Below are positions 43-62,963 of a DNA stretch of 64,000 bases, piece after piece. Source of the stretch: a virus. The number at the start of each line of letters is the position of its first letter. The stretch's first letter is position 1. The translations under genes and the position numbers were made by a program. Under the pieces are notes generated by a model. That model did not search any database and had not been told where the DNA came from. It worked only from the letters and a program-made list of their open reading frames with translations. Location: positions 32,001 to 96,000 of IMG/VR virus record IMGVR_UViG_3300014613_000018; one strand, 5' to 3'.

Positions 43-429
43 ATGAGTAAGATAGTTAAAAGTATACTAATGAGTCAAGCACCTGAAAGACCTAACTGGT
101 TTGAAGGTCACAATATTCCAAGTGCACCTGTAATGCCTAGTAGGAAAATTGAAAGGTACTCTGATTTGAATGATGTTACAATTCTTCTAAATAGCTGGTT
201 AGGAGACCCTCATTGGGATTTGGATAACACTTATGATACTTCAGATCAGTATCCTAAAGGTGTAGATGTATATACTTTTGAAGATGAGTTAAATAAGTTT
301 GCTCAGACTTGGGAAGTATACTGGAAAGCACACTACGAATGGAAGAAAACTGTAGAATTTAAGCTGGATATTCAGTGGCGAGTTTATTGGGCAAATTTAG
401 CATTGGAGGAATTGAATGAGCAAGAATGA
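43..429 (+). CDS. hypothetical protein
   Basis: ORF with RBS (AGGGAG); no recognised motif. Confidence 0.6.
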   Translation: MSKIVKSILMSQAPERPNWFEGHNIPSAPVMPSRKIERYSDLNDVTILLNSWLGDPHWDLDNTYDTSDQYPKGVDVYTFEDELNKFAQTWEVYWKAHYEWKKTVEFKLDIQWRVYWANLALEELNEQE

Positions 430-748
430 TAATGACACACACCAATATTTAGTTATTAATAGTGGTGAATGGTGGACTTGTGAGGAAGTATTTGATGCTG
501 ATTTGTATGACATGGTAATTCCATTGAGTAATATTTCAAGGTCTGCCAACGGTGCAAGAGTCGGGGAGTTGGAGGAAGATGCCAAGAGAATGCGCTGGAT
601 GCTTTCTGGCAATGGCTACTTCATGGAAGAACAGGGACTATGTGGGCATGGGCCATGTGGTGAAGAAGAGCAGAACAAGGCAAGGGCAGAGATAGACACG
701 GCCATGAGATACCTCACCCCTCCAGCCACGGGAACGGAGGAGAAATGA
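416..748 (+). CDS. chimeric Ead/Ea22-like phage accessory protein
   Basis: AT-rich N-terminal half, GC-rich C-terminal half with RVGELE, DAxRxRW...RAEIDTAM and terminal LTPPAT; RVGELE and LTPPAT also occur in 25781..26461. Confidence 0.55.
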   Translation: MSKNDNDTHQYLVINSGEWWTCEEVFDADLYDMVIPLSNISRSANGARVGELEEDAKRMRWMLSGNGYFMEEQGLCGHGPCGEEEQNKARAEIDTAMRYLTPPATGTEEK

Positions 749-915
749 AATGTCCATTGTGCCTCAAAGAGATTGAACTGAAACCAAGAACAGTAGAAGA
801 CTTGTGCTGGATGGCAGAAAAAGCACAAGCAAGAGGACATGACGAGCTTGCCGAGCGCATCTGGCAAATAGCTGAAGAGATGGAACGGCAGGAAGCGGAG
901 GCCAGCCATGAGTAA
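745..915 (+). CDS. small CPxC protein (56 aa, not in ORF track)
   Basis: MKCPLCLKEIE...EAEASHE*; ATGA overlap with upstream gene; same EASHE ending as 25557..25784. Confidence 0.6.
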   Translation: MKCPLCLKEIELKPRTVEDLCWMAEKAQARGHDELAERIWQIAEEMERQEAEASHE

Positions 916-1132
916 GACCGTGGAGCAGATGGCGAGGGAGTTGGCTGAAAAGAAACCGTGTCTGCTTTACTCTTTCGGTGTTACTATAAGTGGTAGTCTA
1001 TTATGTGCCCCTGATCCGTATGCGCTGGAAGGCTGTACTGAGTGTTGGTTGACGAATCTCACTCCTGCCGAAATCACCGCCAAGTACGAAACTCTGATGA
1101 CTGAGAAGGAACAAAATAGGAAGGATTCTTAA
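908..1132 (+). CDS. hypothetical protein, paralog of 25340..25564
   Basis: MSKTVEQMARELAE...CxxCWL...PAEITAKYE matches MSKPTVEEMARELAE...CxxCWL...PAEIRAKYE. Confidence 0.7.
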   Translation: MSKTVEQMARELAEKKPCLLYSFGVTISGSLLCAPDPYALEGCTECWLTNLTPAEITAKYETLMTEKEQNRKDS

Positions 1133-10238: not shown

Positions 10239-10268
10239 AAAAAGGATAGGTATATATACCTATCCTTT
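10239..10268. terminator. bidirectional intrinsic terminator
   Basis: AAAAGGATAGGTA-TATA-TACCTATCCTTTT between convergent genes. Confidence 0.85.
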
Positions 10269-10287
10269 TAACTACTTCATACTTTTA

Positions 10288-17956: not shown

Positions 17957-18035
17957 AAAAATCTCGTGACGTGAAGGTTAAAACCACTTAGTCAAAAATC
18001 TCGTGACGTATGAGGATTTTCCTCTTAGTCAAAAA
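17957..18035 (+). repeat. 37-bp tandem unit CGTGACGT-N14-CTTAGTCAAAAA (2 copies)
   Basis: Copies at 17965 and 18002; third at 23907. Confidence 0.85.
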
Positions 18036-21000
18036 TTTCACCATTACGATTTTTACCGTTTTTGATACAATATTCATCATACATTTTATCAATCTTATTA
18101 GCCTCAATATCCTTGAGTATAGCCAGTATAGTATCTCTTTTATACATAAGGTTATTGGCTACTGTAATCCTTTTATCTTCGGGGTATTCAGTAGTATTTT
18201 CAATATCATCAATAGCACTATCTAAAGCTGTGAGTTTAATGTTAAGATAGTGTACCATTGCATTTTTAAGTATGATTTCCATATAAATATCCTTTCAAAA
18301 ATCGAGTTTAATGTTCAGTAGTATAGAAGTTCAAAGTATTCTCAGTTATTGGATTCTGAATAGTAATAGAAGTTAAAATACCCCTTATCTATACCCCTTA
18401 CCCCTATTGGAACATAGCCCCTTTTTAATGATAGCCCCTATTTTAGATAGTAGCCCCTTATTATCTTATTTTTGAAATTTTAATAGGATGTATTCTATAC
18501 TCCTCACCTTTAATAGTCACATGATAGGCAATAACTTTACTATCTTCAACTACTCTACCTGAAATAGTTGCAGTAATTTTTCTCTTATTAGGTAAGTGAA
18601 CCCAAACAAGAGTACCTATATTCATTATTCTTACTCACCCCAATCCGATTGTGAATCTGTTTGTCTAATGTCAGTCAAGATTACAACACGTCTACCATAA
18701 GCATGTACTACTTTATGACAATGGTTGCACTTGAAATTTACAGAATTACTACCATAAGCATCAATATTCCCAGTAACAAAATAAGGTACAAAATCTTCTT
18801 TATTACAGTAGGGGCATTTAATCCTGTCATTCATTTCATTATCCTTTTAATTTAGAGTTTTCCTAACACTTCTATTATAGCACAATTAGAAAGTGTTGTC
18901 AAGTGCTAGTTTTTACATCCATTTATAGCCCTGTGTTAATAGTTCATCTTGTTTCTGTTCAAATTTCTTTTTGTTTGAAAATGTATAGACCCCAAAGAAT
19001 TTACTTCCATCAGGATACTTAGATACTCCATCATGGTAGTTTATAACATACTTTACTTTACCTATGTTATATTGAAGGTGCATTAATTTCTCATTCATTA
19101 TTCTTCCCTCCACACAAGTATTTGTGCATACCTGCTAAATGAGATTGAATTGCCAATATTCCAGCCGTAATGAATAATAGTGGTGTCACCTTCAATTAGC
19201 CCTGTAGTGTTTATTACTTCATTGACACTAAATAGCTGATTGTTTAAGAATATTGAGTCAGTAATTTTAGCATCCTTTGCATCAATTACTTTAAGCATGA
19301 TAATTCCTTTCAATTTAGAGTTTTCCTAACACTTGAATATAGTACATTTAGAAACCATTGTCAATAGCTTGTTTGGCTCCATTTAGTCCTGCTCTTTGAG
19401 TAATACAGGTTCCATCTTTAACAACATCCCAAACTTGTCCAGAGATTCTTTCATAGATTAGGTAGCCTTTATACTCTTTAGGTTTTACATTAGTAATATA
19501 GTATTCAGGCCCATAATTGTTAGTTACTGGATTGTGCCAAGGGTTTTTATAGGTTGCCATTATTAATCCTCCAAATCTGCTATTATATTTTCTCTCCATT
19601 TAATTTGCCAAGATCTGTCACTGTTAAATGGTCTTTTACTCCATACCTCAATGTCTTCTGTAAGCATGGTGACTATTGCTTCTGCTGTTTCACCTTCTAC
19701 ATAATTGTAGTCAGAATTATTATAGTACCAACCATATTCATCATAAAAGGTATCTTCAAAGGTACTATCAATATCCTGTTCTATACAGTTATGGTGCATA
19801 TCCTCGGTAAGTAGAATATCATATAATTCTTCATCATTGTTATGCAGTACCTTGAATATCTTACCAGCTTGTGTAGTATGCTGTGCAAAGTAATATACTC
19901 TCATTTCAATTTCCTTTCTCAGTTACCAAGAATAGGCATCTTTTTCCTTAGTAGTATTATCATGCAACACACTAAAATAATTTTCTTTTAAGGTTTCTAC
20001 TTTTCCAGTGTAATCAGCATGAAGCATTACTCCATTAAAATTTACTACTATTTCACATTTAAGATCAGTAGCTAATCTTATCATTTCAGAACAAGTATCA
20101 GTGATAGTTTCTCCACCAACTGTTTCCATTTTTAGAATTAACATTTCAATTTCCTTTCAATTTAGAGTTTTCCTAACAGTAGTATTATAACACTTAGAAA
20201 TCTAAATGTCAATAGGTCTTACTTCAAAACAGATACCTTCAGGTATAGCAATGAATATCATGTTAGTATCTGTAAAATTCATTACTCTAAATTCTATCTG
20301 AGTAATACCTAACTGATCGTTATGAAATGCTTCCTTAGATAGTATTGTCACTGTAGTAATACTTCCATTGACTACATGAAGTATTTCACTGCCAATTGTA
20401 ACATCATCATAAGTAGTAACTTCTAGTCTTAGTTTCATGTTAGTATCCTTTCAATTTAGGTTAGTAATATACATTCTGCTTTAGTGTAATACAGAATATT
20501 GTTAAGATATAATCCTAGTATTCTATTAGAAGGGTAAGTATCATGTAGTACTCCATAGCGAGTAAATGAAATAGCATGTTCTACTGCTTTGATAGTACCA
20601 ATTCCATCGGGAGTATTTACCTTATCTTCTATTTTCATTTTAGTTTCCTTTCAATCTGGTAAAACATTTGAAGGTACTGTTATTGAATACAGTTCTGCAA
20701 TGAAAACTAATCCAGCTTCCCTATCTACTGCTATTACTCCAGTATCAGCATGTTTAGCACAGTAATTATTAGCATCTTCTTCACTTGTAGCTATGTGAGT
20801 TACTCTAAATATCTTACCCATACTTTTACAGTAAATATGCAGATTGTTTGTTATGTTCATGTTATTCCTCTTCCTCATAAGGTTCAAAGATTGAAGGGTT
20901 AATACCTTTGTAAATATTACCTCTTTCACCTACAGGAGTAACCCAGATAGTATTTTTACATACCTTGTAAATTTCATAAAAGCGAACACAAGGATTGGTT

Positions 21001-21918
21001 TTAGAAGTAACTTTCATTCTTGTCTTACAATCTTCAATCTTCATTTCAGTTTCCTTTCAAAATAGAAATAGCTTTTTCTGCTCTTTCAATGATAGTAAGC
21101 TGAATCTTACTTTTTTCATCATATATTTCAGCATTAGGAGCATATTCTTCTATATAAATCAATTCAGCTTTAGCTTCTGCTATGTAGTCATTAAGTACAG
21201 ATATAGCATGTGCAAACATTGAAGACATTTCAATTTCCTTTCTACTGTGCTAAGTGACAATCTTCATGGTAAAGACCGGCAGGACATATTGCGTTACCTT
21301 CCCAGTATACTATTGTATCAAATCTAGTAAATTCTTCTCCACAATGTATACAGCAAGGGGTTTCTGGGCAAGTGACTGTAATTTCCATTTTTTTCACCTT
21401 TCAAAATAGAGTTTCAATTTCCATGTACATATAATAACTATTTTCTAAATGAATGTCAAGGGGTAAAACAATTTGGTTTTACCCCTTTGTGTAAGTAACT
21501 TCTACCATCTAACAAAGATCACTATATCTTCCTGATAGCCTTTTCTCTTTGCAATTATTCCGCAAGTAGCCTTATTGCGAGTATGCAGATACTTACCTTT
21601 CATTTCAGGGTGGTTTTTACCTGTCATTAAAAAGGCCATATAGGTAACATAGAAATCTTCTTGAGATACTTCACAAAGAATATCTCCTCTTTCAGTAGTA
21701 TTAAGTAGCTCAAGGAAGTTAAGCTTTCTATATGTTCTCTTATCCTTCTGTACTGGCTTTTCAATAGGAGGTTCATATATACCTTTAAGTGTAGTAGAAA
21801 AGCCTGATTCCTGTGCTAATTCTCTTGCCTTACTTCTGGAGATATTAGCTGTAAATATTCCATTAGGACTAAGATAACCAAAGTGGCCTGTAGTATCCTT
21901 GTAAATTCCGGGGTTCAT
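18025..21918 (-). CDS. array of small early genes (hypothetical)
   Basis: ~15 ORFs of 48-138 aa, most preceded by TGAAAGGAAATTGAAATG-like RBS. Confidence 0.65.
21458..21488. terminator. stem-loop
   Basis: AAGGGGTAAAAC/GTTTTACCCCTT. Confidence 0.7.
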
Positions 21919-21980
21919 TTTAGTATCCTTTCAATTTAGAGTTTCATGTACCTATAATAACTAATTCTTACAAGATTGTC

Positions 21981-22010
21981 AAGAGGATAGGTATCTATGC
22001 CTATCCTCTT
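21981..22010. terminator. stem-loop downstream of beta clamp gene
   Basis: AAGAGGATAGG/CCTATCCTCTT. Confidence 0.7.
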
Positions 22011-22022
22011 ATTCCATTTAGT

Positions 22023-23147
22023 TTACTCAGGTTCAGGCAGTCTCACAGGCATAAGTAAGGCTATTCTTTCAGTATCCTCATACAATACTGCTGTACTGCA
22101 ATCCTTAACCTTGAGTACCAGAGGATTATTGTCAACAAAGTTAGCAATATCCTGAAGCAAGCAAGCATTAAAAGCTATCTGCCCATTATAACTACCTGTT
22201 CCACATTCGGATTCCCATGACATGCTATCAGTGTTCTCACCATAGGCAGTAATTTTATCATTGTTATAAGCGAGAAGTATCTGATGTGTCGCAGGGTTAA
22301 TCAGCTTGATAGGAATGTTGTCTATTACTTTTCTGTCAAGGTTAATTACTTCCTGATTGTTTGCAGGTATAACCTTTTCATAGGGAGGATATGGCCCTTC
22401 AACTTTGCGTATACTAATCATCCAATCCTCACCGGAAAACTGGGTATAAGTAATGTCACCAGTAGTAATTTCACCAGTAGTAAGGTTAGTAACCTTTGTT
22501 AACAGGCTACCTATTGCCATTGGTGCATACTCTTTCCTATCATAGCTTTCACTTGCCTTAACAAGCTGTAGAAGTGGCTTGATTCCATTACCATCTATAA
22601 TGGTACTCTGATGGAACATTTCAGGTGCATTCTTAAATATCCCCATTACATGCCCATTAGTACCAACCAATTCAGACCTTTCCTTATTGTAGCATATTCC
22701 TGTAAGACTGGCTCTAATTTCATTCCTATCAGCTACAAAGGGCATCAATGAAACCAGCTTGTCAACTATTGCAGTAGTATGGTCTGTTCTTGTGTTGTCA
22801 GCAATCTCAGGCAATGAAGGATAGCTTTCCCGGCTGTCAGAAGGAAGATTAAAGATACCTATGGGAGTGTGTATGTTGAGTTTCTTATTGGCTACTGTAA
22901 GGCTGATTTCACTACCTTTAGGAGTAGCATCAATAGCCTTTACAAGTGAAGCATAGTCAACTACTGCCGTGAAATCATTACTGGTAAGGTCAATTACTTT
23001 TACTACAGTAGTAATGTCAAGGTCTGTAGTAGAGAATGTAGTCTCACAAGTGTTATTTTCAATCAGTACATGGCTCAATGAAGGTAGAGAAGTTTTAGGA
23101 GGCACATGCAGAGCCTTGAGTTTCTTAACCAGTGTTTCCTTGTTCAT
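22023..23147 (-). CDS. dnaN: DNA polymerase III beta sliding clamp homolog
   Basis: 374 aa; P.LSHVLI, TTDLDI, YPSLP, RASLTGI, VGTNGHVM, EGPYPPYEKVIP, IAFNACLL.D, C-terminal LLMPVRL. Confidence 0.9.
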   Translation of the reverse strand: MNKETLVKKLKALHVPPKTSLPSLSHVLIENNTCETTFSTTDLDITTVVKVIDLTSNDFTAVVDYASLVKAIDATPKGSEISLTVANKKLNIHTPIGIFNLPSDSRESYPSLPEIADNTRTDHTTAIVDKLVSLMPFVADRNEIRASLTGICYNKERSELVGTNGHVMGIFKNAPEMFHQSTIIDGNGIKPLLQLVKASESYDRKEYAPMAIGSLLTKVTNLTTGEITTGDITYTQFSGEDWMISIRKVEGPYPPYEKVIPANNQEVINLDRKVIDNIPIKLINPATHQILLAYNNDKITAYGENTDSMSWESECGTGSYNGQIAFNACLLQDIANFVDNNPLVLKVKDCSTAVLYEDTERIALLMPVRLPEPE

Positions 23148-23228
23148 TTTAGTTTCCTTTCAGTTTCAAGTTTAAGTAACCAGTCATAACAATTAGAATA
23201 TAGCTAATGAAAATCTAATTGTCAAGTG

Positions 23229-23585
23229 CTAGCTTTTAGCCTTTTCAATGGCTACTATGAAAGACCCACAACAATTATAACAGGAGTATCCTATCATGGT
23301 TTCATCCTCATAAGGTTCAAAATAGTCCCTTGAACCACCAACCAGATAGATACCTTCAATGTTCAAGTTATGGTTTCTATCATTAGCATTTTTGTTAGCA
23401 TTAAGTGAAATTGGAATATGCTTAATGAGAGTAAATTCAGCATCCTTGTTATAAGCACAGCCATCAATCATACCATCAAATTTAGATTTAACCTTAATGA
23501 ACAGTGGAGTTTTAGGATCATTTCTGTACTTGTTAACAAAGCTTTTGAAGGTAGCCTTTGTGGGTTTCTTTTTAAGTATTATCAT
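23229..23585 (-). CDS. conserved phage early hypothetical protein
   Basis: TKATFKSF, FDGMIDG, GIYLVGGSRDYF, YNCCGSF; own promoter. Confidence 0.65.
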   Translation of the reverse strand: MIILKKKPTKATFKSFVNKYRNDPKTPLFIKVKSKFDGMIDGCAYNKDAEFTLIKHIPISLNANKNANDRNHNLNIEGIYLVGGSRDYFEPYEDETMIGYSCYNCCGSFIVAIEKAKS

Positions 23586-23906
23586 TTCAATTTCCTTTCA
23601 AGTTTAAGTTTAGTATCAATTTCTACACAGGTAGTATAACAGGTTATTGCTAAATGTCAACCCCTAAGTTGAAAATTATCTAAATCGTTGAAACACTTGC
23701 ACTTGACATCTAAATTAGGCCACCACATACTCCAGTGTTGAAACAGGATCACAAAAACTAAAAGTGAAATTAGATATTCGGGAAAATCATGGCTAGATTA
23801 CAGCTAAATCCACAAAACTACTTTTAGTATTACAAAATGTTTCGTGAAACTCATATTCAGGTTAGCAATTAGATAAAAGGAGCATAGAATGATGATTGAA
23901 TTTTCC

Positions 23907-23940
23907 CGTGACGTATAGCAAATTTCCTCTTAGTCAAAAA
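23907..23940 (+). repeat. CGTGACGT-N14-CTTAGTCAAAAA, third copy
   Basis: Matches 18002..18035 including TTTCCT. Confidence 0.85.
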
Positions 23941-24357
23941 TTGATGTTTTTTAATTTCAAAAATTATTATTTAATGGTACTTTTTACAAGTGCATTACAT
24001 TATTTAGTCATTTCAAGTGACCTATTTTAACATTAAATAACTTGATAAATATTACTTTAATTGTTACTTAAACTAGCATTACAGTTATGTGTGTTCAATA
24101 ATAAGTCTTGTACAATAAAATTGAACATGCTAAAATAATGAACAAGTAGTATTAAATAATCAGTCTAATTAATTCTAACACTTACTATTAAGTTTATATT
24201 TTGTGGATAATTTAGGCCGTAATAATGTAGTTTTAATAGGTAAGTTAAGTAGTATACTGATTAGAGAAGTTCAACAGTTATTGAAAGTTAAATGTGAGAA
24301 TTTGAATAAAGAAAAGGACACCCCTTTAAGATGCCCTTTACTCCCTGTAAGATAGCC

Positions 24358-25347
24358 CTATTTAAGTGTACTCCCTTTATTGTTTAGTAATATTCTAATA
24401 TTTTTATTGTTAACTAGAACATTATTACTGACGGCATGGATAGCGTTACCTATATCTACATTAACTTTAGATTGTTGTGTAAGGAATTGTAAATAGGAAG
24501 TTCTTAAACCTATACAGAACAATGTTAATATTACTGTAGTAGTATAGAAGAACCATATAACTAGGGTTAATAGAATGTAGATTAACATTTAGTATCCTTC
24601 GCCTTCTGGATGTCGGCGAGAACTGATTCTGCTATTAGGGTAAAAGGATAGGCATCGCACCAATCAACTGAACTGATGTTTTGCCGACGAGCCTCACGAA
24701 ACAATTCGCACAAGTCGTTTAGGCTGCTCTCCATCCTCCCCACCATCTCGGCGGTTTTGCGGAGGCTGGCGTTTTCTTCTGCAACCAATGCTGCCTTTTC
24801 AAGTGCATCCTTCACTTCATCCAAGTCAGCAATTTTGATTGTTATAGTTGAACTAGCCATTATCCTTCTCCCCTTCCTGATGTGTCTGTCATGTGTGGTA
24901 GAATTTCGGGTTCTGGAGGAGAATACCACAACTTGACATATTCTCTGGGTTTACCTTGTATTTCTTGAATTGTTATCTCTCTGGAAAATTGGTAAGATGT
25001 GGCAAATGTTGACTGTGCCATTACTTCTCCCCTTCCTTTCCCTGCGGGGTGGCGAGGGCTTCATGCTTCCTCATCCATTCGGGCACACTATCACACTCCC
25101 CTGGTTGACCTATCTTGAGATAATGCAACAAAGCATCTCCAATACCACTGCGAGGATCGATCTTTCCTGATACAATCTGACAGGCACACACATACGCCAG
25201 TCTGTTGGCTCCTATCTTGTCAATGTCCCCCGCCCTCTCCTGTGCCGGGGTGAGGGGGGTAATTTTGCCTGACTTCATTCCACAGGCATATTGCGTCATA
25301 CCTATAACAGACGACAGCCACTCCGCATCCACCACCAGCTTACTCAT
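24358..25347 (-). CDS. hypothetical proteins at distal end of GC-rich island 2
   Basis: ORFs 24358..24588 (TM), 24582..24860, 25021..25347. Confidence 0.55.
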
Positions 25348-25564
25348 TATCGGCTCCCTTCTGCTTCATCATCTCTTCGTACTTGGCGCGGATTTCGGCG
25401 GGGTATGCAAACGCTAACCAACAATGGAAACATGTGTAGTATTCGTCCCCCTCTCGTGAAATCTCCATGTTGGGAGCCACGCATTTCTTAAACATATTGG
25501 GGCATGGCATAGAATCATCTTCAGCCAACTCCCTCGCCATTTCCTCCACGGTAGGTTTACTCAT
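25340..25564 (-). CDS. hypothetical protein, paralog of 908..1132
   Basis: Likely start MSKPTVEEMARELAE after GGAGGCCAGCC. Confidence 0.7.
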   Translation of the reverse strand: MSKPTVEEMARELAEDDSMPCPNMFKKCVAPNMEISREGDEYYTCFHCWLAFAYPAEIRAKYEEMMKQKGADNE

Positions 25565-25784
25565 GGCTGGCCTCCTCTTCCGTGGCTGGAGGGGCTTCCG
25601 GGGCATCCATCCACGGCTGACAGCCATGTATTTCGGACGGGCTTAGCTCTGTTTGGTATCCACACGCCTCGCAGTAGCACCCCCAATGCTGGACAAAATA
25701 GGTATGAATGCCCATTCGGAATGCAACCTCTCCACACTTGGGGCAGACATGTGAGGGGGCTGCAGGATTTCTGTCTCTCATCAT
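25557..25784 (-). CDS. small zinc-ribbon (Lar-like) protein
   Basis: CPKCG...CEACG; ends EEEASHE. Confidence 0.6.
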   Translation of the reverse strand: MMRDRNPAAPSHVCPKCGEVAFRMGIHTYFVQHWGCYCEACGYQTELSPSEIHGCQPWMDAPEAPPATEEEASHE

Positions 25785-26461
25785 TCACCTTCCTTCGTGG
25801 CTGGAGGGGTGAGGGCAGCAGCTACTATTGCCATGACTCGGTTGGTGTTTGCCATGTTTAGAACATTCTTGCCTAAACACACTCCATATATTCGGTCAAG
25901 TGCGTTTCTGGCCACACCGAGTTCCCCCTCCAACTCCCCGACCCGTTTGCGGAGGCGGTTATTCTTTTTTATGAGATTCCGTACCATTCCGTAGATAGTG
26001 TTATCTATGCCTTCTCCGGCGACAGCATCATCTAAGAGTTCCAAAATAGCTAGTGCTGTTTCTTGTGGGACATAGCTCTTCTCCAACTCCCCGACCCGCT
26101 TCCTGAGTGCGTCCTCGGTGGGGCGGTAACTCTGCCACTGTTCGACCAAATTTGCAACGGTATGGGCTATGGCCTCTACCACATATTCGTTATCAGCCTT
26201 ATGCTCGTCTGGAGTAAATTCTCCCACGAAGTATTGAGCCACATGAACCATCTCATGCACAATCACAAATAAGGGGCAAGAATCAATAGGTACAGACAAC
26301 CTGATAATGCCAATGTTGTGAGATATTTCATAATCTGGATTCAGCTCAAATTCAGCAAAGTTGCCTTTCTGCAACTTAACATTGTCAACAACAGAGACAA
26401 ACAATGGTGCTTGTTCTCCTGCTGGAAACAATCTAAACGGGCACTTCCTCTTCTCACTCAT
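25781..26461 (-). CDS. chimeric protein: Lar-like ends, HExxH core, repeated LRKRVGELE
   Basis: MSEKRKCPF...VHEMVH...EAIAH...RPTEDALRKRVGELE x2...LTPPAT. Confidence 0.6.
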   Translation of the reverse strand: MSEKRKCPFRLFPAGEQAPLFVSVVDNVKLQKGNFAEFELNPDYEISHNIGIIRLSVPIDSCPLFVIVHEMVHVAQYFVGEFTPDEHKADNEYVVEAIAHTVANLVEQWQSYRPTEDALRKRVGELEKSYVPQETALAILELLDDAVAGEGIDNTIYGMVRNLIKKNNRLRKRVGELEGELGVARNALDRIYGVCLGKNVLNMANTNRVMAIVAAALTPPATKEGE

Positions 26462-26819
26462 TATCGGCCTCCCCGTCGTGTACGGAGCCGTATTCAATTC
26501 TTTCCGACACAAAGGTTCCAACTTCGGAATGATGCAGAATCAGACTATCACCATCCGCCGTATAGAACTCACGCCAGTACATTGTTTGTGGGCTGTAAAT
26601 TATGCCTGCACCATAGACAGATGCAGTCCACTCAAGAACAATCATGCCATCTGTATAGCTGACTCCAATGCACTCCATGTGCTGATAATTGAGCCTTGTA
26701 TCTATTAAGCGAATTGTGGTACCATTCTGCATTGTCATGGTCTGGCCTGGTTCAACTTCAACTTGGTTAGCTATGTAGCTTTTGGGTATCAATGCCAGAA
26801 GTATCAATATCAAATTCAT
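26454..26819 (-). CDS. exported hypothetical protein
   Basis: Likely start MNLILILLAL after GAGGAATTGAA; bracketed by a 21-bp direct repeat. Confidence 0.55.
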   Translation of the reverse strand: MNLILILLALIPKSYIANQVEVEPGQTMTMQNGTTIRLIDTRLNYQHMECIGVSYTDGMIVLEWTASVYGAGIIYSPQTMYWREFYTADGDSLILHHSEVGTFVSERIEYGSVHDGEADNE

Positions 26820-26855
26820 TTCAATTCCTCTCTTCCCCATCGTGTACGGAGCCGT
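26471..26855. repeat. 21-bp direct repeat CCCC(G/A)TCGTGTACGGAGCCGT
   Basis: Copies 26471..26491 and 26835..26855, one mismatch. Confidence 0.85.
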
Positions 26856-26919
26856 TTTCTTCTTCACACTCTACCATATCATCTTTCCTTTCTATTCAAG
26901 TTTTCTTAACTACCTTTGT

Positions 26920-27070
26920 AATATACACCTTTAATTTTCATTGTCAAGTGTCTAGGATTCCTTGATTGTTCCTCCTCAGTCTTCAAGTAATATATCACTA
27001 ATCTTCACAGTGTCAATAGTGGAGATTGAAATAGCTCCTACTTGACAATCGTACAGTGTTGTTATATAAT
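26920..27070. promoter_or_regulatory. divergent promoter cluster (two - strand, one + strand)
   Basis: TGTCAA at ~26942 and ~27011 with AATATA boxes; TTGACA(27042)-17-TATAAT. Confidence 0.8.
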
Positions 27071-27108
27071 AGCTAAGTAGTAATTCTTAACATTGAAAGG
27101 AGAATCTA

Positions 27109-28130
27109 ATGAATGAAGAAAAGTTTGTACCTACTACCTTAAAGGAATTTAGAATAGGTGCAATTGTAATGTGTGATTTTGGTAATTATCATAGACCTGA
27201 GTTAAGGGTAGGTAAAATTATCAATGAAACTAAAACTCTATGGAAAGTAGAGTTTAAGACTGGTGTATCTAGTTTTGATAAGGTTTCTGGTAGGCTTAAA
27301 GAAGTTCATTGGAATACCCCTTGGTTGGAACCTTATAATGAAGATAAAGTAATTGAACAGAAGAGGCTAAACATGCTAAGTAATTTGAAGTACAAATTGT
27401 CACAAGGTGAGTTTAACAAGTTAAGTAGTAAAGCCTTAAAGGATATTTGGAGAATCATTTATATTGATCTTGAAATTGTAGGGAAGGATGAAGAATGATT
27501 GCTGGCATTCTAGCTTACCTCATTACTGCCTGTGGAATTGCAGCATTTTTCTTCATGTGGATATGGTATGTTACTAAAGAAGAATGGTGTGTAATAGCAT
27601 CCTTATACAGCTTGATTATAGGTGCTGTAGTAATGATATTCTCAATGGTAGTATAATGAGTGTGTTAGTACCTAATCCAATTCTACACACATTGAAAGTA
27701 AAAGCATTTTTGTATGATGCTACTATTTACCCTATCGTTGAAAAGTATGATACTATTGTTGCAGGATTAACATTAGCAGTAATAGTATTGTTTGTAATTG
27801 CAGTAATTTTTATTATACTGTACAAGCAACAAGTAAGTATAACTAAATTTTATAAGGAATGCTTAAATGAAAACTTTGGTTGGTGGAAATGGTAAAGTAT
27901 AGTTTACATTAAGTGGTTTAGTGTACAGAATACTTAACATTAAATGAAAGGAAGCTGAAATGAAAGCCCTGAGTAGATTGTCAATTTTTACAGGTAATTT
28001 TGTAGTCTTAGGAGGTATACTTCAAGGATTACAGAAGGTACAATGGATAGCGAGTTTGAATGTGATACTTTGGATACTGATAGGCGTAATAATGATGGCT
28101 GTAGGTGCAATAGTAATATCTCACGAATAG
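27109..28130 (+). CDS. inverted mini-operon: one soluble and three small membrane proteins
   Basis: 27109..27498, ~27495..27656, ~27656..27895, 27960..28130; the last three are hydrophobic. Confidence 0.6.
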
Positions 28131-52220: not shown

Positions 52221-52811
52221 TTAACTCCTTACTAACATTTTAGGTTCAACAATATTCATAAAATCTTCCAATTTAAGGATGTAAACATGCTCCATATAAG
52301 GTAAATGTTCTTCCTCAATAAACTTTTTAGTAATTCCTACACTGCGAAATTGCTTACTATATAGACTACTCACATTAGTACCTGCCAGAGGGTACATTAT
52401 GTAATCTGGAAAGTAATTTTTAGTAAACACTAACATTGGAATTTTACTAGCTCTAAATCCTTCATTACAAGATTGATACCAGTATTCTCCTAATCCACAT
52501 GGAGCATTAGGCTTACCTATATTTTTACCTTTTTGGATAAGTGAAGGTGCTTTAGCAATAGTAGTCTGAAACAATTCCTTAAAATCCCAACTTTCAGTAC
52601 ATTTACACTCAATGGTTGCATTAAATCCTTCAGGTGTACATAGATCACCAATTACATCATCTCTTTTTGCCCATCTTAATCCGCCCGATGCTGGCGTCTT
52701 GAAAAACTCACCTTCTAATTCACCACTTTGCCACCAAGCTGTAAACAGTTTAGCAATCTTCCTCTCGAATGTGCTACCCTTATTCTTCGCACCTTTTCCT
52801 TGTGATGCCAT
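52221..52811 (-). CDS. Holliday junction resolvase (Hjc-like PD-(D/E)xK)
   Basis: KGSTFER, TPASGG, GDL, IECK, W.Q. Confidence 0.8.
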   Translation of the reverse strand: MASQGKGAKNKGSTFERKIAKLFTAWWQSGELEGEFFKTPASGGLRWAKRDDVIGDLCTPEGFNATIECKCTESWDFKELFQTTIAKAPSLIQKGKNIGKPNAPCGLGEYWYQSCNEGFRASKIPMLVFTKNYFPDYIMYPLAGTNVSSLYSKQFRSVGITKKFIEEEHLPYMEHVYILKLEDFMNIVEPKMLVRS

Positions 52812-55090: not shown

Positions 55091-57037
55091 CTAATTAAAT
55101 TCTATCCAACTTGTTTTATTTTTCCTGCAAACTGTCCACTCACCATCAAAGCTGTCACTTAAAATATCACTTGTGTTACTTATTACAAGTACTGTTTTAA
55201 TTTCCTTTTTTATCTCAAACAGCAAGTCCATAACTTTACTCTTACCTACATCATCTAAACTCAAGAATATCTCATCCATGATAATGAAATCTAATTTTAC
55301 TCTACTGGTAACTAAATGATGCAAGGCTAAATTCACACACATATTTACACGATTCTGCTCGCCTGAGGACAGCTTATGATACTGATTTGAACCGTACTTG
55401 TCAAGTACCTCTATCTGTAGCTTATTACGAGATTCAGTTTTACTACCACTACCAATTTCTGTCTCACCACTGAAAGCAATTTCTATCTCACCCTCACAAA
55501 GTATATCTGCAAACCTTTGAGCATTCTTTGTCAGCTGTGGTATGATTGATCTGACAAGCAAATTTCTTATACCTGTAGGCCCAAATCCAATCTTCCAGAA
55601 GTCTAAATCTTCCATTAACTCTGTTAAATCATCTGCTTGTTCTTCTATATCCTCAATTTCATCTTCCAGCCTTATAATCTCCTTTTCAATCTGACTGGAA
55701 TCCTCACTCATAGGAGGTACTTCATTCTCTAAATTACTTATACTTACTTCAACATCACTAATTCTAGCATTAGTATTCACAATATCACTTGCTATAGACT
55801 TGATTCTTGAACTAATTCTGTCTACCTTACTCTTCTGTGATACTACATCATTCCTTAAACTTCTAACCTTATTCAATTCATTCTCAGCATTAGTATACTC
55901 TGAATATATTAAACCTCTCTTTTCAACCAGTGATTCTAATGCAGACTCATACTCCTCAACTTGCTTATTCTTTTCATCTATAATTTCATATAAATATTCC
56001 TCTGAAACTTGATTAAAACACTTAGGGCATGTTGCAGTACCTCTCATACTTTGTGCTTGTTTTACATCCAAATTAAGTGTTTTTATTAAGCCTTTATACT
56101 CACCTTGCTTTTCATCAATCTCACTAAGTTTAACTCTAGCTTCTTTTTTAGCAGTTTCAAACTTAGATTCATCAATACCTTTAATTGATAATTCTAATTT
56201 ATCAAGTTCCTTTTCTGCTACTGACAATTCTTTAGCTAAACTAACCTTTGTATCTTCTTGGTCTGATACTTCTTTCCTAAATTGGGAAACTTTGTTCCTA
56301 AATTGGGAAAGTTTAACTAATTGCTGTTCATTCCAGAGTTTAACCTTATCAGCAACTTGAGTTAACCTTACTTTTTCTCTTTCAATATGCGAGTTTAATT
56401 TATCAATTTTAGTATCACAGTTTGAGAGGTCAAGATTAACTTCCTTCTGTCTATCTCTAACTCGCTGTCTGGCTAATTCCAACTCTTCAAGATGCAGCAA
56501 TTTAGAGAATATCTCTTCCTGTTTACTGCTGGTTTTAGAAGCAAATGACTCACTTGAACTAGCAAATAATGCGGCTGTAATAAATGAATCATAATCTAAC
56601 TGTAAAAATTGATCTATGTTATCCTGTGTAACCTTAGTAGTATTACCTCTGCAATCCTTACTGTCAATGAAGAACAGTGTAAAATCACCATCAATTTCAA
56701 CTTCATCACTACCATTAGAGTAAGTATTTCTATCACATTTAATGCCTCTAACTATGTAGGCAGTCTTATTATTCTTAGTAACCCAACCTTCTACTATACA
56801 ATTTTTACTAGCATCCTCATTTATCATTTCTGATTTCTTAAACTTCTCAGGATACACACCATAAAGTAAATATGCTACAGTGTTGAGAATAGTAGACTTA
56901 CCACACCCATTAGAAGATTTAGCTCTGGAACTGATATGCTTACCTCTAACTGAAACCAATCCTTGATTATTAAAATCAATTTCAACAAGCTTGTTACCCC
57001 ACGCTAATAGATTTCGTGCTTTTAAGTTAATTTGCAT
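55091..57037 (-). CDS. sbcC: Rad50/SbcC-like ATPase (gp46-like)
   Basis: NGCGKST, coiled coil with CPKC hook, LSSGE, IIMDE. Confidence 0.92.
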   Translation of the reverse strand: MQINLKARNLLAWGNKLVEIDFNNQGLVSVRGKHISSRAKSSNGCGKSTILNTVAYLLYGVYPEKFKKSEMINEDASKNCIVEGWVTKNNKTAYIVRGIKCDRNTYSNGSDEVEIDGDFTLFFIDSKDCRGNTTKVTQDNIDQFLQLDYDSFITAALFASSSESFASKTSSKQEEIFSKLLHLEELELARQRVRDRQKEVNLDLSNCDTKIDKLNSHIEREKVRLTQVADKVKLWNEQQLVKLSQFRNKVSQFRKEVSDQEDTKVSLAKELSVAEKELDKLELSIKGIDESKFETAKKEARVKLSEIDEKQGEYKGLIKTLNLDVKQAQSMRGTATCPKCFNQVSEEYLYEIIDEKNKQVEEYESALESLVEKRGLIYSEYTNAENELNKVRSLRNDVVSQKSKVDRISSRIKSIASDIVNTNARISDVEVSISNLENEVPPMSEDSSQIEKEIIRLEDEIEDIEEQADDLTELMEDLDFWKIGFGPTGIRNLLVRSIIPQLTKNAQRFADILCEGEIEIAFSGETEIGSGSKTESRNKLQIEVLDKYGSNQYHKLSSGEQNRVNMCVNLALHHLVTSRVKLDFIIMDEIFLSLDDVGKSKVMDLLFEIKKEIKTVLVISNTSDILSDSFDGEWTVCRKNKTSWIEFN

Positions 57038-57282
57038 CTAACTGTTCCTTCTCAAAACAAGAATGCAAGTATCGTATAACTTGTGCTATTGCATATCTTT
57101 GAATGCCTTGTACTGTCGTATAATCAAGCTGTTCTTCCATCAAATCTAAATCATATAACAAACCTTCTATACTTTGTTGTGAAAACCCCTCCAATGAAAC
57201 TAAGTAGTTACCTGCAATACTAGGTATTACTAAGTTACCTTTATTTAGCTCACCTTGCACAACTTGCATCGCCTCAAGATTT

Positions 57283-58338
57283 TTAGACATTTATTAACTC
57301 CTTACCTAACTTCTTTAACCTGTTATGTTGTCTCTTTTTATTACAAGTAATCTCCACATATTTATCCACCATCAATTCCCATGATAAATTTGCTTGTATA
57401 ACCTTATCTTCATCTACTACTTGCTCTTTTCGCTCACCTGTAGTAGCATAAACATTTTCATCCTTCTCTAACCTTTCAATATCCTTCCTAGTAACACCTG
57501 TAACCTTAATGTAATTCTTACCTTGATAATCATTAGGATTATAATTTTTAGCTTCAACTTCAATAAATTTAGGAGAATCTAATGTTACCCTTTGATTATT
57601 AGTTCTCCATTGACCATTAACTAATTCTAACTCAACTATCATGTAGCCTCTATCAGCAGGTTTATCTACAAGAGAATGTTGGCAAGGCGACCCAATGTAA
57701 TAGACAGAGTTCTTTTCATCTAAACATTGTGGAAGATGATAGTGACCAAGGTAGCTGCCTAAAAACTTATCTACCTGTAACTCACCTAATGTAACTGGTT
57801 CTTTAGAAACATGGTCAAACCCACTAAGGAAAGCATTTTCAATTCCTACATGAGCAAACAGAAGTCTATTACTATTCTTACCTTGCTTCAAAAGTAATTC
57901 TAATGATTTTATTGAACCACGATATTCCTCATAGGGAAGAAAATAACAATCGAAACCACTTATAGGAATTATACAAGGCTTATCTATTACATTACAAATA
58001 TCCTTCATGTTCTCAAAGGCATGAACTGTACCATTGATATTGGCTTGATCGTGGTTGCCCACGAGAAGGTAAACAATTATTCCTTTTTCTTTAGCATAGA
58101 GAAGTAAAGTTTTAATATAATTGTTAATAGAATCTTCTCTAATGTTTCGGTTATGGTTCATGTCACCTAGAATAAAAAGATACTTAATTCCTTCAGCAAC
58201 ACAATCATCTACAGTTTGCTTGAATGTAGCACCTATTTCCTCTATTCTGTCTGTTAACATGTCCTCACGAAGTAAAGAAATATTCTTGAACAAGCCAACA
58301 TGATTATCTGCTGTAGCTACTAATTTGAAATTATTCAC
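57283..58338 (-). CDS. sbcD: Mre11/SbcD-like nuclease (gp47-like)
   Basis: ADNH, LGD, GNHD, AH, GHYH. Confidence 0.92.
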   Translation of the reverse strand: MNNFKLVATADNHVGLFKNISLLREDMLTDRIEEIGATFKQTVDDCVAEGIKYLFILGDMNHNRNIREDSINNYIKTLLLYAKEKGIIVYLLVGNHDQANINGTVHAFENMKDICNVIDKPCIIPISGFDCYFLPYEEYRGSIKSLELLLKQGKNSNRLLFAHVGIENAFLSGFDHVSKEPVTLGELQVDKFLGSYLGHYHLPQCLDEKNSVYYIGSPCQHSLVDKPADRGYMIVELELVNGQWRTNNQRVTLDSPKFIEVEAKNYNPNDYQGKNYIKVTGVTRKDIERLEKDENVYATTGERKEQVVDEDKVIQANLSWELMVDKYVEITCNKKRQHNRLKKLGKELINV

Positions 58339-60986: not shown

Positions 60987-62042
60987 TTACTTATTTAACA
61001 GTTCGGGGTTCTCTTGTAACATCTTTTCAATTACATCATCACCTGCAACATAAATAGGATTTCTTGTGCTGCCTTCTTGTCTACATCTATAACTATTACT
61101 TCCTATTGTAACTTTACCTGTTCCTTTTTCTGCCTTTCCACATTCTACCCAATAGTTAATTAAACCACTATAGTACTTCAACTCAGGTGTACTGTCTCCA
61201 AACAGCCAATCAACTGTACCTTCAGTAAATGGTTTAGCTATACGGTTTTTGATGACATTAAAATGCAACCTTGAACCTATTATCTTACTATCAGAGTCAT
61301 ATACTTTTCCAGCCTTACCATTAACAGCCTCAAACATTACTCTAATTTGTGACTGATAACCCACAGCCTTTCCACCACGGCTGATATATTTTTCAGCAGT
61401 AGGTGTTGCAGAAATGTTAGAATACATCTGATTGATTATTACAAACAAAGTATTAGATTTAGTTACTTTAGCTCTAATTCGCTTCAACCATATTCCAATC
61501 TCTTTAGCTTGAGCGCCTTGAGTAGCTTTCGGCCTATCTCCATCTAAATCTTGTGAAAATGGCATTGCTCCTAATGAATCCAATACAAATGTAAACAGTT
61601 TATCTCTACCATACTGTCTGTGAATTTCATCAATTAGAAATTCATACTGTTGAAACATTTCATCAAATGAGTATGGTCTAATTGTACCATCCTTTTCAAC
61701 ATTGCTAGGAGACAGTACAAGTAGTTGTTCTCTATCTAGCCCTATATTTTCAGCAAGTTCAGTATCATGTGCATCCTCTACATCTGCTAATGCTGCAATT
61801 CCTCCAAGCCTAATAGTATTTCTTAACAAGTGGTCTGCAATTAGTGTTTTTCCAGAAGATGATAACCCAGGGAGTTCAATTACATTGCTTGTGGGAAAGC
61901 CCCTACCTGAAGGGTGAATAGCATGATTCAAACTAGCACTACCAGTATCTATCCATGTTACATTTTCATACTGTGAGGCAAGTTCAGAGGAGGTATTAGC
62001 TCCTCCTCCAAACTTTTTATTAAAACTATCTTTCAAGCTCAC
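60987..62042 (-). CDS. recA: RecA/UvsX-like recombinase
   Basis: WIDTGS..LN, GLSSSGKT, DVE, VLDS, INQ, GGKA, KNR. Confidence 0.93.
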   Translation of the reverse strand: MSLKDSFNKKFGGGANTSSELASQYENVTWIDTGSASLNHAIHPSGRGFPTSNVIELPGLSSSGKTLIADHLLRNTIRLGGIAALADVEDAHDTELAENIGLDREQLLVLSPSNVEKDGTIRPYSFDEMFQQYEFLIDEIHRQYGRDKLFTFVLDSLGAMPFSQDLDGDRPKATQGAQAKEIGIWLKRIRAKVTKSNTLFVIINQMYSNISATPTAEKYISRGGKAVGYQSQIRVMFEAVNGKAGKVYDSDSKIIGSRLHFNVIKNRIAKPFTEGTVDWLFGDSTPELKYYSGLINYWVECGKAEKGTGKVTIGSNSYRCRQEGSTRNPIYVAGDDVIEKMLQENPELLNK

Positions 62043-62963
62043 TTATTTACTGCCTCTCTTACCCCTTGTAGGTCTCCCACTTTTAGCACCTCTAACTGGC
62101 TTTGGTTTATCTTCAGGTTCATCATCGTTACCATAAGGGGGAGTTTCACCTGTTTCTTCACCTTCCTCACCATTTCTAAGTGCTATTACATCCTGTAGTG
62201 TAGAGCCTTCAACAAGCAGCTTTGTCTCTTCATAATTAAGGAAGGGTTTACCATGCTCAAATATATCAGGTAGTACATTATTTATCTCTTCTGCTGCTTC
62301 CCAATCAAACTCGCCATCTTCAGTAGTAACCATAAATGATACTTCTCTGGTATCACTAACCCTGTAAGTAGTATCCTTCTGACCCATACCATGCCTTGTA
62401 ACTTCAATATCAGTACCTTCAAACAGCAAGTCTGGATCAGGTATTCTAGTGTCCATGTAAAGAGCCATTACATCGGTGTCTACAGTCTTGCTACATTCCC
62501 ACAGCCACACCTTTTTAGGCTCGTCACTGTTCTTCCAAAGGACAAATCTAGCAAACCTCTGAGAAGCCCACATATCATTAGCAGTATACTTATCCTTCTT
62601 GTCACCAGTTTCCTTCAATGCTGCAATTTCCTCACACACAGGACAATCTTCATCATTCCAGAAATTCAAACACGCACAAATCTGATTCTGTGAGCCTACC
62701 TTAAAGTGTGTTCTAAGCTCCTGATATGGCATTGCTTCATCTTCAAACTCAGCATCTTCATCCTCACTGTCAAGATAAAACTGTAGTGCTGCCTTTGAAG
62801 GTAGTATTCTAAGTATCCTCTTTTCCTTATCTTTCCATGAAGGAAGTCTATCTATCTTCACAAAATCAGAATTATTATTCTCATCCTGCTTCTTTTTATC
62901 TTCCATTCGCTTCTCGTAAATCTCTTCTGCCATCTTTGCTCTTGATTTTCCCCTTGTTGCCAT
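62043..62963 (-). CDS. single-stranded DNA-binding protein (gp32-like)
   Basis: RILP, H...C...CPVC, G.DI...R.G....T.Y; adjacent to RecA. Confidence 0.75.
   Translation of the reverse strand: MATRGKSRAKMAEEIYEKRMEDKKKQDENNNSDFVKIDRLPSWKDKEKRILRILPSKAALQFYLDSEDEDAEFEDEAMPYQELRTHFKVGSQNQICACLNFWNDEDCPVCEEIAALKETGDKKDKYTANDMWASQRFARFVLWKNSDEPKKVWLWECSKTVDTDVMALYMDTRIPDPDLLFEGTDIEVTRHGMGQKDTTYRVSDTREVSFMVTTEDGEFDWEAAEEINNVLPDIFEHGKPFLNYEETKLLVEGSTLQDVIALRNGEEGEETGETPPYGNDDEPEDKPKPVRGAKSGRPTRGKRGSK

Follow-up and report, generated by a model that had tools for sequence, protein, structure and literature searches.

The 114.5-kb IMG/VR virus record analyzed here carries two GC-rich islands in inverted orientation, which share short blocks of identical DNA in the same order, and the segments between these blocks have diverged to the level of shuffled sequence. 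The reading that we favor, at a probability of about 0.6, is that the islands represent two captured pieces of a mosaic array of small genes, which would stem from a higher-GC phage pool in which exchange took place at standardized junctions. It is an old and unsettled question whether mosaic phages result from homologous exchange at short conserved linkers or from random illegitimate joins that are then selected, and clear linker cases are rare among cultured phages (PMC3029335). The locus offers a compact test bed for this question, in which each border is a recognizable module of 8–27 nt, exchange extends below the gene level, a single groundwater community contains the carriers together with several variants, and the array would have moved from a pool of approximately 55% GC into a phage of 35% GC.

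Phage Record and Composition of the Islands

The window, i.e., the whole stretch of 64,000 nt that was analyzed, corresponds to bases 32001–96000 of the record, which originates from groundwater metagenomes and is approximately 70% complete. The whole 114.5-kb genome has a G + C content of 35% and a CpG observed/expected ratio of 0.33, and its genes include those for a portal protein, a ribonucleotide reductase, a sliding clamp, and an RNA ligase. As a UvsX-like recombinase, an SSB, an SbcC/SbcD-like nuclease, and a RusA-like resolvase are encoded as well (Table 1), it represents a large, recombination-proficient phage. No close relative was detected among cultured phages or in IMG/VR.

Island 1 (541–1132, + strand) and island 2 (24582–26867, − strand), the latter being longer than the range of approximately 25340–26120 given earlier, have G + C contents of 50–52% and CpG observed/expected ratios of 0.58–0.66. 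The earlier note had described both as GC- and CpG-rich within an AT-rich, CpG-poor genome, and the measured composition bears this out. Other GC-richer spots of the genome (42–45% GC) are Ala/Gly/Thr-rich structural genes and not further islands. DNA and protein searches with the islands against cultured phages and plasmids yielded no match, and no relatives were found for the gene at 43–429, which neighbors island 1. None of the island proteins was assigned to a significant family in Pfam, PHROGs, or NCBIfam, the Lar-like and M91-like matches being below the cut-offs.

Table 1. Features of the two islands and of the surrounding phage genome (positions in the window)
Feature	Position	Strand	Description
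RVGELE block	560–575 (island 1); 25942–25927 and 26095–26081 (island 2)	+; −	15–16 nt
Shared block	712–730 (island 1); 25814–25796 (island 2)	+; −	19 nt
Shared block	717–731 (island 1); 25594–25580 (island 2)	+; −	15 nt
Shared block	897–915 (island 1); 25575–25557 (island 2)	+; −	19 nt
Shared block	929–949 (island 1); 25540–25520 (island 2)	+; −	21 nt; extended 33 nt, 94%
Shared block	1078–1090 (island 1); 25388–25376 (island 2)	+; −	13 nt; extended 46 nt, 78%
A1	416–748	+	110-aa chimeric ORF
A1, N-terminal part	416–540	+	First 125 nt; AT-rich native-type DNA, 33% GC
A1, C-terminal part	541–748	+	Imported DNA, 55% GC; RVGELE hinge 560–575, LTPPAT tail 712–740
B1	745–915	+	56 aa, CPxC knuckle; ATGA overlap with A1
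B1, junction block	891–915	+	Last 19–25 nt of B1, common to B2/C2; ribosome site and overlapping ATGAGTAA stop/start
C1	908–1132	+	74 aa, four-cysteine family; N-terminal helix block 917–949, C-terminal 1064–1109
Z2 cassette	26454–26859 (ORF 26454–26822)	−	First gene of the imported operon
Z2 brackets	26834–26859 and 26470–26495	−	26-nt direct repeat, 92% identity; both copies encode a ...GSVHDGE tail
A2	25781–26461	−	226 aa; N-terminal HExxH domain, two RVGELE hinge units, LTPPAT tail 25791–25814
A2 hinge units	26081–26107 and 25928–25954	−	27-nt direct repeat, 153 nt apart
B2	25557–25784	−	75-aa zinc ribbon; weak Lar-like match, below cut-off
B2 brackets	25791–25809 and 25576–25594	−	19-nt PPAT tail repeat
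C2	25340–25564	−	74 aa, four-cysteine family
C2 brackets	25557–25564 and 25340–25347	−	8-nt stop/start ATGAGTAA
D2	25021–25347	−	108 aa, two modules
D2 parts common to community contigs	25315–25339; 25231–25258; 25024–25047	−	Head; module hinge; tail
E2	24860–25021	−	53-aa ORF
E2 brackets	25024–25036 and 24865–24877	−	13-nt exact repeat in two TAATG junctions
F2	24582–24860	−	92-aa coiled-coil protein, last imported gene
Sigma-70-type promoter	26920–26947	−	11/12 consensus positions; AT-rich DNA just upstream of island 2
Second sigma-70-type promoter	27016–26989	−	
Terminator-like hairpin	24313–24339	−	Closes the island 2 transcription unit
UvsX-like recombinase, SSB, SbcC/SbcD-like nuclease, RusA-like resolvase	60987–62963, 55091–58338, 52221–52811	−	Recombination set

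The possibility had to be considered that the islands are an assembly chimera, with GC-rich reads of other elements joined to the phage contig at common words, and the assembly of sequencing run X4 indeed breaks at the F2 block, which is common to other elements. However, the island proteins occur on four to five independent contigs, which come from JGI, ENA, and Logan assemblies and reach 114.6 kb, and the island 2 genes recur on a 70.7-kb contig of a strain that is 99% identical. One contig from an RNA library (24269–25551) crosses the AT/GC boundary at 24582, and at both kinds of boundary the reading frames continue as in-frame fusions or overlaps. Since the same proteins recur on independent contigs and on the strain contig, a chimera is very unlikely, to the point of being almost negligible.

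Shared Blocks and Uneven Divergence

The five blocks quoted in the earlier note were all recovered at their positions, in the same order and in inverted orientation. Six colinear exact matches of at least 14 nt exist between the islands, where 500 dinucleotide-preserving shuffles gave 0.002 on average, whereas global alignments of the inter-block segments scored only z = 0.3–1.7 relative to shuffles. Since exact blocks alternate with DNA at shuffle level, divergence between the islands is extremely uneven, and not of the uniform kind that had been named beforehand as the mark of ordinary paralogy.

Three kinds of blocks can be distinguished: gene tails that hold the ribosome site of the next gene together with an overlapping stop/start, the RVGELE sequence, which is an inter-domain coiled-coil hinge within gene A, and the N- and C-terminal helices of a family of four-cysteine proteins of approximately 70 aa (C1 and C2). 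The cores between the blocks had been described as unrelated or far more diverged. This holds for the A and B pairs, where similarity outside the blocks was undetectable by BLASTP in both A1/A2 and B1/B2, and the A and B cores of the two islands are different proteins. It has to be revised for the C pair. C1 and C2 are 43% identical at the protein level (E = 1e-9) with the four-cysteine scaffold kept, and because of this identity and the common cysteines their cores are fast-diverged homologs and not unrelated sequences, even if the core DNA aligns at random level despite the homology of the proteins.

Organization of the Islands and Their Junctions

Island 1 begins within A1 and terminates at the stop codon of C1, and island 2 consists of seven − strand ORFs running from 26822 to 24582 (Z2, A2, B2, C2, D2, E2, and F2), the last of which overlaps the start of a native AT-rich membrane ORF (24358–24588). 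At every border in both islands, a GGAG-type ribosome site in the tail of the upstream gene is followed by an overlapping stop/start, which is ATGAGTRA in four cases, ATGA in two, and TAATG in another two. The ribosome site lies 5–9 nt ahead of the ATG in all junction blocks, and both LTPPAT and the block that ends in ATGAGTAA belong to these tails and junctions. The cassettes of island 2 are each bracketed at their junctions by direct repeats of 8–27 nt (26 nt for Z2, 27 nt for the A2 hinge unit, 19 nt for B2, 8 nt for C2, and 13 nt for E2). The upstream copy of the Z2 repeat is a tail remnant inside an 18-codon mini-ORF, the tail and junction of B2 (25557–25594) match the tail of A1 as well as the B1/C1 junction, and the RVGELE hinge, which is present twice in A2, has a single copy in A1, at the beginning of its imported part.

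Some of the encoded proteins have features that may bear on their function. Z2 has a hydrophobic N-terminus (MNLILILLALIP...), which suggests a secreted or membrane-anchored product. Residues 1–112 of A2 (26125–26461, −) comprise an HExxH domain (HEMVH) without a Pfam family, which may be a small metalloprotease with an early role in the phage. The head block of D2, which is conserved, contains an E. coli Chi octamer (GCTGGTGG; 25332–25339, −) immediately past the C2/D2 junction, possibly by chance.

Apart from one weak terminator-like match, no promoters or terminators were found inside the islands, and the signals flanking island 2 are listed in Table 1. Contigs from RNA libraries cover 24127–26897, start near 26897, and include island 1. 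No such cover exists at 23800–24053 and 26975–27101, and it is low at 27102–27600. As RNA libraries can contain DNA, this cover is a hint of island transcription.

The Four-Cysteine Family

The family of C1 and C2 has neither a name nor a Pfam entry. A profile search of 1.8 billion representatives retrieved 25 representatives of 59–90 aa and <50% identity, which have an N-terminal helix of the TVEEMARELA type, the cysteine pairs CP..C and C..CW, and a C-terminal PAEIRAKY helix. The cores of these proteins differ in length and sequence; the terminal motifs and the four cysteines are constant. The predicted structure comprises three helices and a cysteine loop (mean pLDDT 76). A fold search of the PDB with C2 gave no match, a protein atlas contained nothing usable, and IMG/VR, when scanned with degenerate and peptide patterns for either the C or the D family, yielded no true member.

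A member of the family is encoded on an unrelated metagenome contig of 54% GC (L004), which has similar junctions and carries a 20-nt word that is also found in C1 and C2. Silent sites were compared at residues identical between the proteins. Among 26 such codons in C1 and C2, 20 were the same compared to 10 expected from island codon usage (P = 6e-5), and for C2 and L004 the corresponding figures were 17 of 26 and 8.8. Within the blocks, 18 of 20 codons agreed; for the core the figure was 2 of 6 (Fisher p = 0.013). All of these codon counts are small. The codons in common include AGG, TTG, and GCT, for which these genes have no strong preference. Silent sites within the blocks have not reached saturation.

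The family combines constant flanks with cores that are hypervariable and cysteine-rich, a pattern that targeted hypermutation of the cores could in principle also produce, by a mechanism of the diversity-generating retroelement type or similar. However, what distinguishes the cores is their length and whole domains, not substitutions at one base type, no reverse transcriptase (PF00078) is present in the record, and neither a template repeat nor a long repeat pair was found. Hypermutation is hardly a credible explanation on these grounds.

Variants in the Groundwater Community

A search of metagenomes for the linkers had been proposed earlier. In GC-rich contigs of the same groundwater the blocks were seen again in unchanged order, with cores that were different or absent. 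For this analysis, contigs of four runs were mapped on positions 23800–27600 at 80% likeness, so that breakpoints are resolved only to this threshold and skipped parts may be distant homologs. The phage has a depth of 375–620 in the runs, and contigs of other elements occur at low depth. A 1805-nt contig of run X4 (depth 10.5) has nine short colinear matches to island 2 over 1024 nt, compared to 1663 nt in the island. Another X4 contig (1472 nt, depth 6.1) contains six matching pieces with a C core of 110 letters compared to 143, and has its F block joined at a distance of 8 nt from the D hinge. Runs X1 and X6 have short contigs that likewise match the blocks only, and do so colinearly. The 9% share found in X6 consists of block-only and short near-identical pieces, and statements on habitat are confined to groundwater. 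The F2 block at 24729–24776 is present in other contigs of all three DNA runs. At the joint 25339→25557, found in X1 and X4, C2 is gone exactly at the common 8-nt stop/start, and at the joint 25945→26102 one RVGELE unit is absent.

The block-bearing low-depth contigs run on into flanks of approximately 60% GC, which marks them as elements of the donor type as opposed to phage variants. Together with the composition of the islands and the 54% GC contig L004, these contigs support the earlier proposal of an import from a higher-GC pool. The exact linker words are absent from IMG/VR, and the exact 20-nt word had only three chance matches in bacterial genomes. Two details of the mapping may be added: an A>G difference at 26507 is present in contigs of X1, X4, and X5, and three letters left out at 25553–25554 mark a place where island 1 cross-maps on island 2.

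Exchange below the gene level, which the note had also put forward, is corroborated by the C cassette missing at its 8-nt repeat in two runs and by the protein relatives of D2 and A2, which are domain mosaics. The relatives of D2 pair its N-module or its C-module with other partners, and head and tail are retained. In P0036 and P0037 the N-module and the tail of D2 surround other cores, whereas in P0034 and P0035 the C-module of D2 is found behind other N-termini. One of the latter has an added DUF551-type end, which matches a gene located in a row of small genes beside the cI repressor of Pseudomonas phage MR13. P0004 combines the HExxH domain of A2 (51% over 103 aa) with a different C-terminus.

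Orientation of the Islands

The near-identical inverted blocks (62 nt at 89%, 19–21 nt exact) could also be thought to serve a programmed inversion or shufflon, in which the 24-kb segment between the islands flips and thereby creates hybrid A, B, or C genes, and a flipping of the intervening segment had been suggested earlier. The data lend no support to this suggestion. The 114.5-kb contig and the contigs of X4 show a single arrangement, and all contigs have one orientation, contigs alone being liable to miss rare inverted forms; the 70.7-kb strain contig agrees in its island 2 genes. What looked like loose ends at the blocks proved to be cross-mapping of island 1 on island 2. Tyrosine (PF00589) and serine (PF00239) recombinases are absent from the 114.5-kb record (approximately 70% complete), and the blocks occur also as direct repeats and in other genomes. 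Moreover, each island points along the transcription of its own operon, which explains the inverted orientation. Programmed inversion is therefore highly improbable.

Constraint Versus Exchange

Another explanation is ordinary paralogy or homology under very uneven constraint: the islands would derive from one ancestral array in which the blocks were kept for their function, and the rest drifted or was driven apart by an arms race, with no role for recombination. The constancy of the terminal motifs and the four cysteines among the 25 C-family representatives is in line with this view, as is the uniform placement of the GGAG-type sites in all junction blocks. In addition, an anti-Shine-Dalgarno-like CCUCC of the PPAT tail pairs with the downstream site in 3 of 3 minimum-energy folds. 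Since the junction blocks are selected as ribosome sites and start-stops, and the C helices are conserved motifs, part of the conservation needs no recombination. However, constraint does not readily account for silent sites that are almost unchanged in the blocks next to cores at random level, for A and B pairs without detectable homology beyond the blocks, or for tails that are duplicated on both sides of a cassette. The whole cassettes missing at repeats in community variants and the domain mosaics in the D and A families also speak against it. The fold energies of the junctions, furthermore, were no better than those of shuffles (z = −0.9 to +0.7), so that the hairpin between the PPAT tail and the ribosome site is only a lead. 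Taken by itself, uneven constraint is a rather unlikely explanation of the islands.

According to the favored reading of captured array pieces, the source array would circulate in a higher-GC, probably temperate-phage-like gene pool of the same groundwater community. Its tiny genes would be chained by translational coupling, with a tail that holds the next Shine-Dalgarno site and is followed by ATGAGTRA, ATGA, or TAATG, an overlap that would dictate the head (MSK/MSE) of many genes. The junction modules, the RVGELE hinge, and the terminal helices of the C family would be kept at the DNA level. As these modules are in frame in any two arrays, they would offer short homologies for the insertion, deletion, or swap of cassettes and half-genes, and swaps at the modules would leave frame and coupling intact. 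The phage would have acquired one piece, consisting of the C-terminal end of A followed by B and C, in a + strand operon, and a second piece (Z-A-B-C-D-E-F) behind a strong promoter on the − strand.

We infer that homology itself drives the exchanges; the exact blocks, at 8–27 nt, are no longer than the usual limit for RecA/UvsX-type exchange. The breakpoint of the island 1 capture lies approximately 15–20 nt upstream of the RVGELE block and thus outside it, and the capture into the phage itself looks illegitimate. The island genes presumably have early accessory functions of the host-takeover type, and the four-cysteine and HExxH domain families are candidates for such early functions.

Comparison With Known Systems

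Boundary or linker sequences have a long history in the modular evolution of phages (Susskind and Botstein, 1978; Clark et al., 2001, both as cited in PMC3029335). In the mycobacteriophage Island3, a gene tail is duplicated beside an inserted gene (gp67/gp68), which has been attributed to exchange at short boundary sequences (PMC3029335), and the cassettes Z2, B2, C2, and E2 resemble this case in that the inserted gene has the C-terminal tail of the preceding gene. The islands also have in common with the linker model that short sequences identical at the DNA level lie at the borders of unrelated modules and that genes are intact after exchange: their border sequences are conserved at the DNA level, the modules in between are unrelated or far more diverged, and the linkers recur around other modules. 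In contrast to the linker cases described, the island linkers consist of coding tails that contain a ribosome site and an overlapping stop/start, supplemented by within-gene hinges. They are 8–27 nt long as opposed to approximately 50 bp, they reside in foreign GC-rich DNA of an AT-rich, lytic-type large phage, and their variants were seen directly in the same community. The locus illustrates the old linker model cleanly in a natural setting and does not constitute a new type of system.

Integron arrays resemble the islands as rows of unrelated small cassettes with a recurring border element and one promoter. The islands, however, have neither an integrase (PF00589 is absent from the approximately 70% complete record) nor folded sites of the attC type, their junction folds being no better than shuffles, and their borders are coding and their cassettes translationally coupled. 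The junctions might also be imagined as active sites of a dedicated cassette-capture mechanism for translationally coupled genes, integron-like without a known integrase, which would be encoded by the donor elements or by UvsX/SbcCD of the phage and would load small genes behind one promoter. Such a dedicated mechanism is improbable, and exchange between arrays at the junction modules is preferred.

The A proteins resemble Ea22, encoded in the lambda exo-xis region, which has an N-terminal domain, a coiled coil that is alike at its beginning and variable further on, and dissimilar C-terminal domains with a common K/RGE end (PMC7093339). A1 and A2 likewise have a common hinge (RVGELE) and the ends ...KEGE and ...TEEK, and are located in a row of small early genes; the family searches showed no sequence homology of Ea22 to A1 or A2.

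The PeSL (promoter-early stem-loop) cassettes of T4-type phages (Arbiol et al., 2010; PMC2839356) are comparable to the islands as repeated short elements between small non-essential genes, which undergo insertion, deletion, or replacement in a large, recombination-proficient phage. However, PeSLs are non-coding units of promoter and terminator, whereas the island linkers are coding, contain neither of these signals, and connect translationally coupled genes. Between the island genes, where the junctions overlap, the PeSL order of sigma-70 promoter and terminator stem-loop does not occur.

Elsewhere in the window, at least nine copies of a 31–52-nt element ending in a ribosome site and ATG precede small AT-rich early genes (18826–23607, −). 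These leader repeats are a native PeSL-like promoter/leader array, distinct from the GC-rich junctions and absent from the islands. The early-gene array is bracketed by a 39-nt repeat containing CGTGACGT, which is found in tandem at one site (17962–18037) and as a single copy 5.9 kb away (23904–23942). Finally, a perfect palindrome of 31–33 nt is present in two copies 11.7 kb apart (10240–10272 and 21978–22011) and probably serves as a bidirectional terminator or binds a protein.
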